From the NCBI GenBank assembly GCA_964615185.1, contig CAZTOS010000024.1:1-23409 (forward strand): a DNA stretch of 23,409 nucleotides, in the 5' to 3' direction. The notes under the pieces were generated by a model. It saw only the letters and a program-made list of their open reading frames with translations. It did not search any database and had not been told where the DNA came from. This stretch comes from an uncultured Thermococci archaeon. GTDB taxonomy: Archaea; Methanobacteriota_B; Thermococci; Thermococcales; Thermococcaceae. The position numbers and the translations under genes were made by a program. Below are positions 2,438 through 23,404 of this stretch, in pieces (position 1 is the first letter of the stretch; every line of letters starts with the position of its first letter).

Positions 2438-3337
2438 CTAAAAGCCGAAAGCATTCTTGATATTTAAAAGAGCCCAATAGAAGTCATTGGAATGAACTAT
2501 AACAAAGTGCTCTTTTTCCTTACTGAGCTCTCCTCTTGACTTTCCTTCCAGCTCTCCATAAAGCCCGACAATCTTAATTTTTGGATATGTTGTTGAAAGC
2601 TTAAGCGTTATTCTTTCTGCCTTTCCTTCTCTCCATACTATGCCAACTTTTAAGCCAGCTTTTGTTTCCTTTCTCTTTTTCAAGCCCAACTTAAGATATG
2701 GTAAAACTTCCTTGTTTACTCTATTTTGCTCTGCCTTTTCGTTTAGGTACTCTTTAACCAGCTCAAATGACTCTAAGCTCAGATTGTAGCCAAAAACTGG
2801 GATGCCAAGATTTTTGGCTTTCCTTCCTTTATAGGAATAAACCTCAATCTCTTTCCCATTGCTTTTTGATGCAAAATACATGCCTTTTGGTCTTCCATTA
2901 GCAAATTGTTCGAGTTTTTCAATTATATCTCCAAAAGTATCAATAGGCAACGAAAAGCTGGCCCAAGTACTCCAGATTCTTGGAGGTACCCTCACAAAGC
3001 CTAAATCCTCAAGATGATATTGCTCAACTTCAAATCCCAATTTCAAGAACCCTTTCTCATTTATTAGCAGTTTCAATAATGCTCTTTCTGGACTAATTTC
3101 AACAAAATTACCGTTCTCTTTAATTTTCTTGCCCTTTAACAGCTTATCTTTTCTGAGTTTTCTACCTGTTTTAAATGCTGTTACAACCGGTATTGGAGTT
3201 GCAAAGCCCTTTTCTTTGTCATAGGGCACTTTAAATCCTGCTTTTAGAAGTTCTTCCTGGATTTCCAAAGATGCCGGAAAGAACACTTGAAAACTTTCAA
3301 GCTCATAGCTTCCCAGCTCTTTCCAAACCATTTTCAT
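2438..3337 (-). CDS. Hypothetical soluble, Lys-rich protein (start 3343, 3337 or 3331)
   Basis: About 300-codon ORF with native codon usage and a GGTG SD-like site; divergent from lysS. No family motif recognised. Confidence 0.8.
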   Translation of the reverse strand: MKMVWKELGSYELESFQVFFPASLEIQEELLKAGFKVPYDKEKGFATPIPVVTAFKTGRKLRKDKLLKGKKIKENGNFVEISPERALLKLLINEKGFLKLGFEVEQYHLEDLGFVRVPPRIWSTWASFSLPIDTFGDIIEKLEQFANGRPKGMYFASKSNGKEIEVYSYKGRKAKNLGIPVFGYNLSLESFELVKEYLNEKAEQNRVNKEVLPYLKLGLKKRKETKAGLKVGIVWREGKAERITLKLSTTYPKIKIVGLYGELEGKSRGELSKEKEHFVIVHSNDFYWALLNIKNAFGF

Positions 3338-3459
3338 CAACACCTTTGGTCTTATTTTTACTTTTTTTATTAGTCATGCACCTGCAACTTTATAAAGTTT
3401 TCGGAGAAAGAGCCAAAGCTTAAAAAACTATCTCTCATATTTACCAGCAGGTGGTGAGA

Positions 3460-11430: not shown

Positions 11431-11521
11431 TTTTACCCCAGTAGGACTTTGGGGATTTATTTTTAAACTCTTGCCTACATCTAAGATAAATTTTTAAACG
11501 CTTAGCTTTCTATCTAAAAGC

Positions 11522-11915
11522 GTGCGGAAGAAGCTTCTGCTGCCCTTTCCCTTGCTGGATATTTAACCATGCCCATAGAATGGCTGTTCCACCCTTATTC
11601 CAATAATAAAGACCGAATTTGAAATCAACAACGCAGAAGCAAGACTTTTAATGACTGCCCTCCTTCTGCCTTATGCTCTAATCCAGTTAATATTCTTAGT
11701 TATTCACTTGCAAGTGCACTTTCTATTCAGTTGGACCAATACTCACAGCTTATACTGCAGATTAACCGACACATGAAAACAGGGGAAGTGTAATGGGGGT
11801 TTTGGAGCAACTCTCGATCCATATCTCCTTATTGACACCTTAAGCCATAAAGAAGCAATTCCATTGATGTATATAACCGCACTAATAATAATAGGAGCAC
11901 AAAAGAAAAGATCAA
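11522..11915 (+). pseudogene. Degraded MFS transporter with frameshifts and large internal deletion(s)
   Basis: GTG start (MRKKLLL) after a TTTTTAAA box at about 11491. Fragments in shifting frames: WIFNHAHRMAVPPL (11556-11597), IPIIKTEFEINNAEARLLMTALLLPYALIQ (11597-11686), then C-terminal-type FYSVGPILTAYTAD* (11721-11765), ENRGSVMGV and FGATLDPYL. Confidence 0.8.
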
Positions 11916-13111
11916 CCATACATAACCTCATGCATAGCTATTTGTTGGGCCAATCTCTGCTCTGAGCCAAATACCTTCTCCACAGCCTTCAGGAAATCCT
12001 CATGTGTTACGTACTCCCTTCTATCCCTAATGGCAAACATTCCAGCTTCTGTTGCTATAGCTTTAAGATCCGCGCCACTCGCTCCCTCTGTCATCTCCGC
12101 TATACTCCTAAGATCAACATTTCTGAGATTCATCTTCCTTGTATGAACCTTAAGTATCTCCAACCTTCCTCCGAAATCTGGCAGGGGCACTTCAATTAAT
12201 CTGTCAAACCTTCCCGGTCTAAGTAAAGCAGGATCTAAAATGTCCGGCCGGTTTGTGGCTGCTATAACTTTTACATTTCCTCTTGGATCAAAACCATCCA
12301 GCTCAGCTAATAGTTGCATTAGAGTCCTATTGACTTCCCTTTCTCCTCCGGTAGTCTCTTCCAATCTTTTGGCTCCAATAGCATCAATTTCATCTATGAA
12401 GATTATAGTGGGGGCTTTCTCTTTTGCCAGCTCAAACAGTTCATGTACCAATCGAGCACCTTCTCCAATGTATTTCCTCACAAGCTCACTACCGACAACA
12501 CGGATAAAGGTTGCATTAACTTCCCTTGCAAGAGCTTTGGCCATTAGTGTTTTTCCACATCCAGGAGGCCCATAAAGGAGAACACCCTTAGGTGGTTCAA
12601 TTCCAACCTTTTCAAACAGTTTTGGATGTTTAAGTGGAAGTTCAACTGCTTCTCTGAGTTCCTGAAGCTGCTTCTTTAATCCACCAATATCATTATACGT
12701 CACATTTGGTCTGTCAATAACCTCAAACCCAAGAACAGAGGGATCCTTCGGTGATGGCAGAATTTCAACAACAGCCATTGTCCTTTGGTCAAGGGCCACT
12801 CTACTACCCGGTTTCAGCTTTTCCTTTTCAATCCATGGAGCTATTCTAACAACAAATCTCGGTCCATTGTAATTCTGGACTATTGCCCTATCATCGTCAA
12901 GTATCTCAAGCAATGTTCCGGCAAAAGCCGGGGGTTGTCTTAATCTTGACATTTCCATTCTCAGGCGGGAAAGTTCTCTTTCAAGTCTCTCCTTATCTGC
13001 CTCAAGAGTTCTCACTTGAAGTTCAAGCTGTCTGATCCTTCTTTTTAGATAGATGATGTAATCATCATACTCGTCATGAGACTTAAGTCCCACATCATTA
13101 ATGTCACTCAT
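11912..13111 (-). CDS. pan: Proteasome-activating nucleotidase (AAA+ ATPase)
   Basis: N-terminal coiled coil and OB domain, Walker A GPPGCGKT, pore loop KYIGEG, Walker [32 protein letters not shown] and C-terminal HbYX (MYG). Confidence 0.98.
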
Positions 13112-13307
13112 AACTTATCCCCCCATAACTAATTTGGTGAGAAGAACTTTTAACTCTATTCCCGATTACCATTAGATTCGCCTAACCTTCACTTCTTAAG
13201 CTTCTTTATAAAGTTATTGGTATTATTTCAGTATATACTAACTCGACTCGAAATTCTTATTAAAGATGAATGCGTATATTTTAATGCTTAATCAGGAGGG
13301 TGGTTTA

Positions 13308-14057
13308 ATGAGAATAGAACTCAAGCTCAAACCCAGAGACGAAGGGACAATTCTTCCATTTAACTACAACTATGACGTCTATGTTCAAATTATTCAAAAA
13401 GTAGCCATAACCTCCCCTGAGCTTGCAAGATTGCTGGAAACTACTCATAAAGACTATTTCACATTTTCCAGGATTATGGTAAGAAAGAGAGAGCTAATCC
13501 CCGATAAGGGAATTAAAATCCTATCGGATGAGGTATGCCTCTACATCTCTTCTTCAGTTATTGATGTAATAAAATCTATAGTCGAGGGATTTATTGAAAA
13601 TCCCGTGCTCCAGATTGAAAATTCAACATTTATCATGGATGGAGTCAAGATTCTTCGAGAGCCCAAGATAAAAGATGGTACTCTCTTCTCCACTTTAAGC
13701 CCTATAATAGTGCGAACGGTAAAGCTTGAAGGCAATAGAATGAAAATTTGGGATCTGTACCCCAGTGAAGAGACATTTCATGACAAGCTCAGGAAGATAA
13801 TGCTAATGCGTTTTTCTGAAATTGAGGAGAGAATGCCCGAAGATAAAGATTTTAGAATCGATGTTATAAAGTACAAACCTGTTAGGATTAAAGTCAAAGA
13901 TACATACTTTAGGGGTTCTCTCATGGTATTTAGATATTATGGATCAAAAGAAATAGCAAAATTTGCTTATGAAAATGGATTTGGTGAAAAAACAAAATAT
14001 GGATTTGGAATGGTCAAAGTGATTGATGAAGAAGAAGCACAAAGAAGCCAAGAATAG
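13308..14057 (+). CDS. cas6: Stand-alone Cas6-family RAMP protein, probably non-catalytic (P. horikoshii Cas6nc type)
   Basis: LPFNYNY, FTFS, STLSPI and C-terminal Gly-rich loop GFGEKTKYGFGMV; AGGAGGGTGG SD before ATG 13308. Confidence 0.9.
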   Translation: MRIELKLKPRDEGTILPFNYNYDVYVQIIQKVAITSPELARLLETTHKDYFTFSRIMVRKRELIPDKGIKILSDEVCLYISSSVIDVIKSIVEGFIENPVLQIENSTFIMDGVKILREPKIKDGTLFSTLSPIIVRTVKLEGNRMKIWDLYPSEETFHDKLRKIMLMRFSEIEERMPEDKDFRIDVIKYKPVRIKVKDTYFRGSLMVFRYYGSKEIAKFAYENGFGEKTKYGFGMVKVIDEEEAQRSQE

Positions 14058-14919
14058 TCTCAATTGCCCAGACAATCGCAACAAGTTCATATTCCCTTAC
14101 CCTTTTTGCCCTCATTATTAAGCCTAAGAAGCTTAGATACGGTGGTGCTTTTAAGGTGCCATCTTCTAAGATCTCCGTTCTGCCCAGTGGTCGCCCCTTG
14201 AACTTTATTTTTGTCTTTAGAAGAAAATCAATCATATGGGGGACAAGGAGAATTGCCGCAAAGACCTCGACTTTGCCGAGTATCCCGACTAATCCTATAA
14301 GGGCACCCAGACTCAGGGTTCCAGTGTCCCCCGGGAATATCTTTGCTGGATATTTGTTCCACCATAAGAACCCAAGAGCTACAGCAAAACCAACAAAAGC
14401 TACTATTCTTGCATCTCCTGACGTTATCATTCCAAGAAAAAGTAACGCTATCGCAGAAGTTCCAACTTCAAGCCCATTAAAACCCGCAAGCATGTTAACA
14501 AGATTTGCAGAAGCCGTCACAAATAGAACAGCAAACAGATAGTATAGTGTTTTTAAATTGATTGTAAAAAGTAGGAGATTGATATCTTTGCTGATCTTTA
14601 AACTCAATAGAGGTAAAGAGACCAACAGAGACAGTAGAACTTTATGAGACTGTCTGAGATTCGTTAAATCATCAATGATTCCCACCACTCCAAAAAGGAG
14701 AAATACCAGCAGCACTGTCGGCAGATTACCAGTTAAAACAGGTGCCAAGGCTACTGAAAGAGATATTAAAATCGCAATTCCACCCATTTCAGGAATTTCT
14801 GGCTTATCCAGCTTATGTATGTCCTTCCCAACTATTCCCGCTTTTTTCATTATATCAGCAATATACAATGTCAAAATCAGCGAGAGGGATAACCCTATAA
14901 ATGCCAATGCCCAAATCAT
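14014..14919 (-). CDS. UDP-GlcNAc:dolichyl-phosphate GlcNAc-1-P transferase (MraY/GPT/AglH family)
   Basis: GKDIHK, PEMGG, GIIDD, NLVNMLAGFNGLE and YPAKIFPGDTG; multi-TM. Confidence 0.92.
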   Translation of the reverse strand: MIWALAFIGLSLSLILTLYIADIMKKAGIVGKDIHKLDKPEIPEMGGIAILISLSVALAPVLTGNLPTVLLVFLLFGVVGIIDDLTNLRQSHKVLLSLLVSLPLLSLKISKDINLLLFTINLKTLYYLFAVLFVTASANLVNMLAGFNGLEVGTSAIALLFLGMITSGDARIVAFVGFAVALGFLWWNKYPAKIFPGDTGTLSLGALIGLVGILGKVEVFAAILLVPHMIDFLLKTKIKFKGRPLGRTEILEDGTLKAPPYLSFLGLIMRAKRVREYELVAIVWAIETILGFFVLLLHQSL

Positions 14920-19312: not shown

Positions 19313-20845
19313 ATGTGCAAGATGGCTCATTTTGGGAACTGCGACCCTGAAACAGCTGACCAAGAGTACTGCATTTTTCATAAACCGGATAAAGATGAAA
19401 AAGAAGCAAGGGAGTTTTACAATAAGCTAGTTCTGAAGTTTTTTGGTTATGTACTTGATATCAAAAGCATTGCAGTAAGAAAATTAGAGAATTTTGAATA
19501 CAACCTTCATTTCTCTAAGAGTATTCCTGTGGGTGGCACTACATACTCCCACAGGGTAAACTACAGATTCGGGTTGTCCCTACGTTGTGAAAAGTTTGTA
19601 TTCCCCCAGATTCCTGTAGATGTGGAATTTTCCTTTAAGTATGCAATTTTTGAAAAGAAAGCAAACTTTAGATTGGCAACATTTATTGGCTACACTACAT
19701 TTGAAGGAGTTATATTCAAAAATGAGGCAATATTTGACTCTGCAATATTTAAAGGAAACACAATCTTTGAAAAAGCACAGTTCAATGGAGTAAGTAGATT
19801 TTCAGATGCAACGTTTGAAATGCCAGCGTACTTTGAGAATTCAGTATTTAATGGGAACGCTATTTTTGAGAGAACTGAATTTCGTAGAGAAACGTATTTT
19901 GAAAATACAACTTTTGGTAAAACAGCAAATTTTGATGAGATAATGTTCTTTAGCAAAGCAAACTTCCAGAAGTGCAGATTTCTGGAGGATGCAAAATTTT
20001 CTGAGGCGTATTTTGAATTAAGTAGTGACTTTGAAGGATGTATCTTTGAAAAATCCGCAGATTTTTCAGCAGCTACTTTCAACGGGTATGTATATTTTGA
20101 CAGAACAATATTCAAAGATGATGTTTCATTCGAGGGCGTTACTTTTAATGAGCCCATTTCATTCAAAGGAAAGCCTGAAGAATACAAATACAAATTCTAC
20201 GGCAAACTTGATTTTTCTCATGCGGATATTAGAAAAGGCATCGATATTGACATTCCAAGCAAATGGTTTAAACTTCCAGAGGCAGAAATCGAAGCCCGCC
20301 GTGTTCAGAGGATTAGCTATGAAAAAGAAGGAAAAAGGTACGAAGCTGACGAAATGTTTGTTCTTGAACGTCGTACTCTACGTAAATGGTTAAAGAGACA
20401 TGCTAAAGAAAGATTCAAAAATGCAGAGGGGATTTATTCAAAATTTGAATCGTTTTTGTACCTTTTATACGTATATTTCGCAACTATAACGGAAGCAGTC
20501 CTAGCGGATTGGATTTCTCGGTATGGAACTAAGTGGAGCCTTATACTGCTTAACTCCTTTGGAGTCATTGGAATAAATGCAATTTTGTACTGGGTACTCT
20601 CAGGATTTGCTAAGAAAACATTTTTGGGCATTCCAATAGGAACGATCTATACAGATGCTTCATCTCAGGGGCTTATTGGGTTCCTCAACGCTCTCTACTA
20701 CAGCCTCGTCACCTTCACCACATTAGGCTACGGTGACATGCACCCAACAGGTTGGTTAAAAATTGTTAGTGGTCTTGAAGCCCTCACAGGCGCAGTCTTC
20801 ATGGCACTTATAGTTGCAGTCATCGCAAGAAAGTGGATGTGCTGA
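19313..20845 (+). CDS. Pentapeptide-repeat protein fused to a C-terminal 2-TM potassium-channel pore domain
   Basis: N-terminal C-x7-C-x9-C-x2-H; about 16 tandem 11-residue Phe-periodic repeats (about 19622-20170); pore helix and filter LYYSLVTFTTLGYGD (TTLGYGD at 20717-20737) flanked by TM helices. Confidence 0.88.
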   Translation: MCKMAHFGNCDPETADQEYCIFHKPDKDEKEAREFYNKLVLKFFGYVLDIKSIAVRKLENFEYNLHFSKSIPVGGTTYSHRVNYRFGLSLRCEKFVFPQIPVDVEFSFKYAIFEKKANFRLATFIGYTTFEGVIFKNEAIFDSAIFKGNTIFEKAQFNGVSRFSDATFEMPAYFENSVFNGNAIFERTEFRRETYFENTTFGKTANFDEIMFFSKANFQKCRFLEDAKFSEAYFELSSDFEGCIFEKSADFSAATFNGYVYFDRTIFKDDVSFEGVTFNEPISFKGKPEEYKYKFYGKLDFSHADIRKGIDIDIPSKWFKLPEAEIEARRVQRISYEKEGKRYEADEMFVLERRTLRKWLKRHAKERFKNAEGIYSKFESFLYLLYVYFATITEAVLADWISRYGTKWSLILLNSFGVIGINAILYWVLSGFAKKTFLGIPIGTIYTDASSQGLIGFLNALYYSLVTFTTLGYGDMHPTGWLKIVSGLEALTGAVFMALIVAVIARKWMC

Positions 20846-23316: not shown

Positions 23317-23404
23317 GCGGGGGTTGCCGAGCCTGGTCAAAGGCGCGGGATTTAGGGTCCCGTCCCGTAGGGGTTCCCGGGTTCAAATCCCGGCCCCCGC
23401 ACCA
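23317..23404 (+). tRNA. tRNA-Leu(UAG), intron-less, long variable arm, encoded CCA
   Basis: Acceptor stem GCGGGGG (23317-23323)/CCCCCGC (23394-23400); anticodon stem CGGGA/TCCCG with loop TTTAGGG (TAG at 23353-23355); T-loop GTTCAAATC; discriminator A followed by CCA; TATA box TTTAAATA at 23285-23292. Confidence 0.97.

Follow-up and report, generated by a model that had tools for sequence, protein, structure and literature searches.

A near-universal non-catalytic Cas6 of the Thermococcaceae, a possible binder of crRNA repeat tails

The window analysed here, the whole 23,409-nt stretch of DNA that is contig C24 of the host genome G000, carries a gene for a Cas6 protein whose catalytic triad has been replaced. 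Comparison across genomes shows a core gene of the Thermococcaceae that is near-universal, inherited vertically and held under purifying selection (dN/dS about 0.08). Our best guess at its function, to which we assign a probability of roughly 0.45, is that the protein acts in trans, binding but not cutting the repeat tail that crRNA intermediates carry. The features on which this account draws are as follows, in window coordinates.

13308 to 14057, plus strand: non-catalytic Cas6 orthologue, 249 aa, tandem RAMP fold (profiles and AlphaFold model)
13295 to 13304, plus strand: Shine-Dalgarno sequence before ATG 13308, conserved among orthologues
13250 to 13263, plus strand: putative BRE/TATA promoter motif of its own (GAAAnnYTTATTAR), at 59 of 68 orthologue loci
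13392 to 13394, plus strand: Ile29, replacing Tyr31 of PfuCas6; I, V, L or M in 68 of 68 orthologues
13437 to 13439, plus strand: Glu44, replacing His46 of PfuCas6; His in 0 of 68 orthologues
13446 to 13448, plus strand: His47 in the loop, present in 49 of 68 orthologues
13452 to 13454, plus strand: Asp49, replacing Lys52 of PfuCas6; Asp in 59 orthologues, Gly in 9
13458 to 13553, plus strand: residues 51 to 82 (T-F-S-R..R.R, beta2-beta3), putative RNA groove
13977 to 14009, plus strand: intact Gly-rich loop in the sequence, G224 to G234 (GFGEKTKYGFG)
11912 to 13111, minus strand: pan, proteasome-activating nucleotidase (TIGR01242), divergent neighbour; arrangement ancestral, not constant
14014 to 14919, minus strand: glycosyltransferase family 4 (GT4) gene, GlcNAc-1-P transferase-like, convergent with a 44-nt 3' overlap

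The Cas6-like open reading frame extends from 13266 to 14057 on the plus strand. Translation likely begins at ATG 13308, giving 249 aa, since this codon follows the Shine-Dalgarno sequence and BRE/TATA motif listed above and an MR(I/V) N-terminus is present in 68 of 68 orthologues. The first-pass annotation of this DNA had placed the gene in 13112 to 14057, a range that does contain it, although 13112 lies in intergenic DNA and is not the gene start. Its description of a full-length Cas6 with a strong Shine-Dalgarno sequence and an intact Gly-rich loop agrees with the profiles and the sequence: the protein matches Pfam PF01881 and PF21350, as well as TIGR01877 at 137.9 bits (cut-off 58.65). 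The AlphaFold model of the 249-aa protein (pLDDT 94) has a tandem RAMP fold and superimposes on 3QJJ and 3UFC with TM scores of 0.92-0.93.

A search of the 23,409-nt window revealed no arrays or further cas genes, as had been stated at first pass. The label of orphan given there suits the locus but not the genome, which carries at least three arrays (contigs C44, C71 and C80), a type I-B operon on C43 with a triad-bearing Cas6 (gene order cas6-cas8-cas7-cas5-cas3-cas4-cas1), and a type III cas6 adjoining csm1 on C131. The latter gene (L003) lies in two frames with an internal run of N, probably an assembly gap. Host crRNA processing is independent of the non-catalytic Cas6. Elsewhere in the window we observed the 3' end of a 23S rRNA gene (1-573), a tRNA-Leu (23317-23404), a 510-aa protein with pentapeptide repeats fused to an Ion_trans_2 channel domain (19313-20845, plus strand), and two minus-strand ORFs of 301 aa (2438-3343) and 199 aa (1770-2369) with no Pfam match.

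The best PDB match is PfuCas6nc, the P. furiosus Cas6 paralogue of entry 3UFC, which we take to be locus tag PF0393 (318 bits, 59% identity, TM 0.93). Both proteins have lost the triad and fall in one clade with 100/100 support; the protein described here has a C-terminal tail 8 aa longer and a THK-DY loop in place of SPH-GY, and genus g3 loci lie away from pan. PhCas6nc of P. horikoshii (PH0350; PDB 3QJJ, 3QJL and 3QJP) follows at 289 bits, 55% identity and TM 0.92, so that the likeness to PhCas6nc noted at first pass holds for the whole PhCas6nc/PF0393 group (one clade, 55-59% identity). Active PfuCas6 (3I4H/3PKM; 112 bits) and the Cas6 of Thermococcaceae I-B operons share the fold and the Gly loop at about 30-35% identity, but are basic proteins (pI about 9.6) that retain Tyr/His/Lys, are encoded within cas operons and undergo exchange and loss. 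An alignment and phylogeny of Cas6 paralogues, proposed with the first-pass annotation, placed the non-catalytic proteins in a single clade (100/100 support, stem 1.77) with the triad in 0 of 68 members; this clade does not group with the Thermococcaceae operon Cas6 in either of two trees, whose deep branches lack resolution. Best match, clade, replaced triad and retained Gly loop together identify a non-catalytic Cas6; the marks of an active endoribonuclease of the PfuCas6 type, the triad and an adjacent cas operon or array, are both absent.

The published PfuCas6 triad is Y31/H46/K52 (PMC3652601), and we located it by alignment to 3PKM. The replacement by Ile/Glu/Asp that had been read by eye was confirmed at I29, E44 and D49. 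The triad count covers 68 of the 94 orthologues, which were extracted for it, together with the 30 best-matching operon-linked Cas6, to which genus g3 contributes none: the triad is complete in 0/68 and 30/30, respectively. That a complete triad also occurs among outside Cas6, in 31 of the 40 nearest clusters, indicates that its loss is derived. Where both genes occur together (23 genomes), non-catalytic and operon Cas6 are equally variable overall (0.68 vs 0.67 bits), whereas residues 22-50 (the active-site face, helix1-loop) have an entropy of 1.17 bits vs 0.46 in operon Cas6, and residues 51-82 one of 0.37 bits vs 1.12, alignment columns in this comparison not being independent of one another, so that its p-values are too strong. 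This shift suggests that the active-site face is relaxed while the strands of the putative RNA groove are constrained.

Among the 68 orthologues, K31, K228 and the Gly loop are almost invariant, and the median net charge is near neutral (+1, vs +12 in active Cas6). We further identified 33 invariant residues that differ from operon Cas6. As 23 of these 33 are shared with one or more of three outside Cas6 proteins, all of the triad type, one without the Lys, the conserved surface is probably mostly ancestral, and we do not take clade-specific residues as proof of a novel function. His47 was considered as a substitute catalytic His and rejected, since it is kept in just 49 of the 68 orthologues. 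The protein also differs from the His-less active Cas6 of the SsoCas6 type, in that Asp or Gly occupies the Lys52 position.

Thermococcaceae genomes carry an orthologue of at least 53% identity in 94 of 97 cases. The three misses (G059, G094 and G054) also lack pan and the GT4 gene, and are therefore likely assembly gaps; for this reason we set aside true gene loss in these three, in a search made without a positive-control genome. In the 79 good genomes, the orthologue is present in 78, operon Cas6 in 68 (at a threshold of our own choice, E below 1e-55, with two partial matches included), cas1 in 66, Cas7/DevR in 67 and type III RAMPs in 34. No match above 38% identity was found in 36 other genomes of the phylum, where the best match sits inside an I-B operon, and no copies were found among the viral contigs searched. 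Median dN/dS (Nei-Gojobori, pairs with dS 0.1-1.5) is 0.08 for the orthologue (418 pairs), compared with 0.128 for operon Cas6, 0.135 for GT4 and 0.05 for pan. Within genera, distances of the orthologue follow those of the GT4 neighbour with a rho of 0.87 (64 pairs), partly due to physical linkage, vs 0.48 for operon Cas6. One operon Cas6, that of genome G064 (L081), is 95% identical to that of G000 across genera, reflecting either recent transfer or bin contamination.

By eye, no cas neighbours were seen at the 68 orthologue loci (1.5-3 kb on each side). The deepest family member (48% identity) has the order pan/cas6/GT4, which is thus ancestral. The first-pass annotation had allowed for cas genes normally adjacent in relatives and only recently lost here; neither the 68 loci nor the deepest member have them. 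The domestication it proposed fits a gene that appears vertical, core, long unlinked from cas and under purifying selection. The CRISPR repeat pattern occurs in 94 of the 97 family genomes and is as widespread as the protein; a short pattern gave matches at background level and was uninformative.

We then considered genomes lacking cas markers, in which retention of the gene and selection on it had been suggested as a check. In closed genome G020 and drafts G039, G058, G081 and G093, no cas1, DevR, RAMP or operon Cas6 was found, and the orthologue is kept intact. The non-catalytic Cas6 is the sole TIGR01877 match in G020, G039, G093 and G058 (the genomes searched), and cas3 above cut-off and PF05107 were negative in G020, G039, G081 and G093. 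On four cas-less terminal branches of the orthologue, 10 non-synonymous changes accompany 63 synonymous ones, and on their sister branches 17 accompany 63, giving no sign in these sequences of relaxed selection in lineages without cas markers.

Remnants of CRISPR persist in most of these genomes: a leader, five identical repeats and one terminal repeat in G020, a leader and two mini-arrays in G093, 10 repeat pattern matches in G058, and a leader and a repeat in G081. The last genome also holds a remnant of cas1 that has one frameshift and a single private residue, where intact cas1 genes have 0-6 private residues. Three patterns detected no repeats in draft G039. In G081 (L137, 4016-4400), the leader and repeat are fused to the last 89 cas1 codons, the scar of a cas operon deletion. 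As the repeats of G020 and G093 and the cas1 remnant of G081 have barely decayed, the losses in these three genomes look recent, G039 and G058 lying outside the dating. A gene outside the cas operon would persist for some time after a recent cas loss whatever its role, and retention is therefore weakened as proof of a non-CRISPR role.

The converse case is closed genome G026, where the orthologue is interrupted at residue 148 by a 23-kb inversion that takes in an apparent mobile element. This genome retains 99 repeats together with another two cas6 genes, and a correct assembly would mean that the gene is dispensable. The inversion (L078 3390 to L079 10623) contains tRNA-like genes and, by eye, integrase-, resolvase- and methyltransferase-like ORFs. 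In closed genome G015 (L122, 7586-12550), cas1, cas4 and cas3 accompany an array whose repeats belong to a second family; no cas7, cas5 or cas8 was found there, nor any cas6 except the dead copy.

Expression was followed in T. kodakarensis, where we infer the orthologue to be TK2253, a 750-nt gene divergent from TK2252 (presumably pan) that has the same 44-nt overlap with a convergent gene; TK0464 is presumably the operon cas6. According to data in PMC4247193, the primary TSS of TK2253 lies 24 nt upstream of the gene and 168 nt from that of TK2252. Raw reads in the five unreplicated, 5'-enriched libraries of that study give TK2253/TK0464 ratios of 2.6, 3.0, 17.5, 13.7 and 0.2, the last being the stationary-phase library, in which the order is reversed, and TK2253/TK2252 ratios of 0.2-2.2 (PMC4247193). 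TK2253 protein was found by mass spectrometry in one RPA2 pull-down (score 121; PMC2962436); the list is long and includes many ribosomal proteins, so that we read this entry only as showing that the protein is made, not as an interaction.

RNA binding and inactivity are properties shown for PhCas6nc only, not for the window protein. PMC3727216, a review, describes PhCas6nc as an inactive homologue with wrap-around binding of repeat RNA in the inter-domain cleft, and has the P. horikoshii orthologue grip the first ~10 nt of the repeat. The sequences show that an ancient Cas6 of an ordinary Tyr/His/Lys lineage lost its active site early in the Thermococcaceae, and that the dead copy settled between pan and GT4 with its own promoter and has been inherited vertically since. 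Its beta-sheet groove may still grip the repeat, which is unstructured and family-wide, by its first ~10 nt. As the cut made by active Cas6 lies 8 nt from the end of the repeat, the bound site would stay on the 22-nt 3' tail of the 1X crRNA. There the dead copy could serve as an in-trans cap or hand-off factor that stabilises the 1X intermediate, frees the less abundant active Cas6 for recycling by occupying the tail, and serves whichever horizontally exchanged effector a strain carries. PMC4436667 reports that 1X intermediates carry 22 nt of 3' repeat, that effector complexes are without Cas6, and that Cas6 departs before or during effector loading, and PMC4666368 that 1X intermediates accumulate or persist without effectors.

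The triad pattern, the entropy shift, the repeat in 94/97 genomes and the excess of TK2253 over TK0464 in four of five libraries all count for this cap model, as do repeat binding by PhCas6nc, 1X biology and the recent date of the cas losses. Against it stand the lack of cas linkage since the deepest member, the intact gene in cas-less lineages, the near-neutral charge, the split copy of G026 alongside retained CRISPR, and the stationary-phase ratio of 0.2.

The main rival is that the protein is an exapted household RNA-binding protein for a host single-stranded RNA (an mRNA motif, an sRNA or a processing intermediate) and that repeat binding in vitro is a leftover. We regard this as a serious contender, though less probable than the cap model. 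Presence in 78 of 79 good genomes, vs 68 for operon Cas6, 66 for cas1 and 67 for Cas7/DevR, counts in its favour, together with vertical inheritance (rho 0.87 vs 0.48) and a dN/dS of 0.08 vs 0.13 for operon Cas6 and 0.135 for GT4. So does retention in closed G020, where cas1, cas3, cas7, RAMP and other cas6 were not found; the PDB title of 3QJJ, which mentions different RNA substrates, and the ribosomal-protein-rich pull-down also point this way. However, four of the five cas-less genomes are drafts, four of the five hold repeats (G020, G081, G093 and G058), and the dated losses are recent. A scan of the host genome made without a shuffle control gave scattered near-matches to the repeat and no prominent repeat-like target, and the surface is mostly not new, 23 of 33 distinguishing residues being ancestral. 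The fuller claim, that a Cas protein was domesticated family-wide as a sequence-selective non-CRISPR host RNA binder selected independently of immunity, is somewhat unlikely.

Improbable, in our assessment, is a competitive brake or sink that binds pre-crRNA repeats or viral single-repeat mimics and so limits or buffers processing by active Cas6. It would use the same binding site, with a transcript level above that of the active enzyme, and viral solo repeat units are suspected of inhibiting host CRISPR (PMC8730458); yet T. kodakarensis crRNAs are abundant and constitutive, and the viral contigs searched hold no copy. Slightly less credible still is a slow or atypical nuclease, one relying on basic residues (K31 and K228) in the manner of His-less Sulfolobus Cas6 and processing orphan arrays in trans. 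Active Cas6 without the His is known (PMC3727216, PMC3652601), and both lysines and the Gly loop are almost invariant; but the same papers and PMC3902920 call the Pyrococcus orthologues non-catalytic or inactive, Asp or Gly stands in for Lys52, no region varies more than the active-site face, and a basic residue at position 31 is common to active Cas6 and hence no gain.

The neighbourhood bears on a last proposal, made at first pass, of co-regulation with proteostasis through the divergent pan gene. The convergent GT4 gene is the most constant neighbour (60/68 loci), whereas pan lies divergently at 40 loci and, at 5 more, downstream in the same orientation; from the other 23 it is absent, two of these being limited by contig ends. 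Adjacency is thus broken in 26 of 66 loci, including all g3 and g5 loci examined and part of g4, which argues against obligatory co-regulation. The BRE/TATA motif has a single exact match on the plus strand of the window and occurs, with at most one mismatch, at its 59 loci with or without adjacent pan, the nine loci without it being all of genus g3. A functional partnership with PAN is very improbable: the divergent layout is ancestral, but the gene has a separate promoter, the T. kodakarensis start sites are 168 nt apart and the read ratio varies about tenfold. Between rio2 and pan, a 480-nt ORF-free gap (11431-11911) may be a decayed gene remnant, several relatives having a transporter-like gene there. 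In three genomes (L035, L055 and L062), a transposon-like ORF, presumably TnpB-like, lies immediately upstream of the dead cas6.

Proteins of this type have been in the PDB since 2012, and named database entries wrongly annotate the non-catalytic Cas6 as an endoribonuclease. In the open-licence literature we found no assigned role, functional study or family-wide survey of it, and the Cas6 passages of PMC3737340, PMC13676074, PMC12934983, PMC3973734 and PMC8730458 do not mention the gene. Relative to that literature, two points appear to be new: a near-universal vertical core gene that exceeds every true cas marker in retention, and its transcription above active Cas6, by raw reads in four of five T. 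kodakarensis libraries. The nearest parallel is one of analogy only, to Cbp1 and Cbp2, which bind repeat DNA and are unrelated to Cas6. They are host-encoded, cas-unlinked CRISPR modulators of Sulfolobales and Thermoproteales with suspected extra cellular roles (PMC3973734).

A structural curiosity thereby becomes a one-gene knockout question in T. kodakarensis, with natural contrasts at hand in G026, where the gene is split and CRISPR is present, and G020, where it is intact and no cas gene was found. Its answer would bear either on the way crRNA intermediates pass from Cas6 to several effectors, or on the exaptation of a Cas protein.
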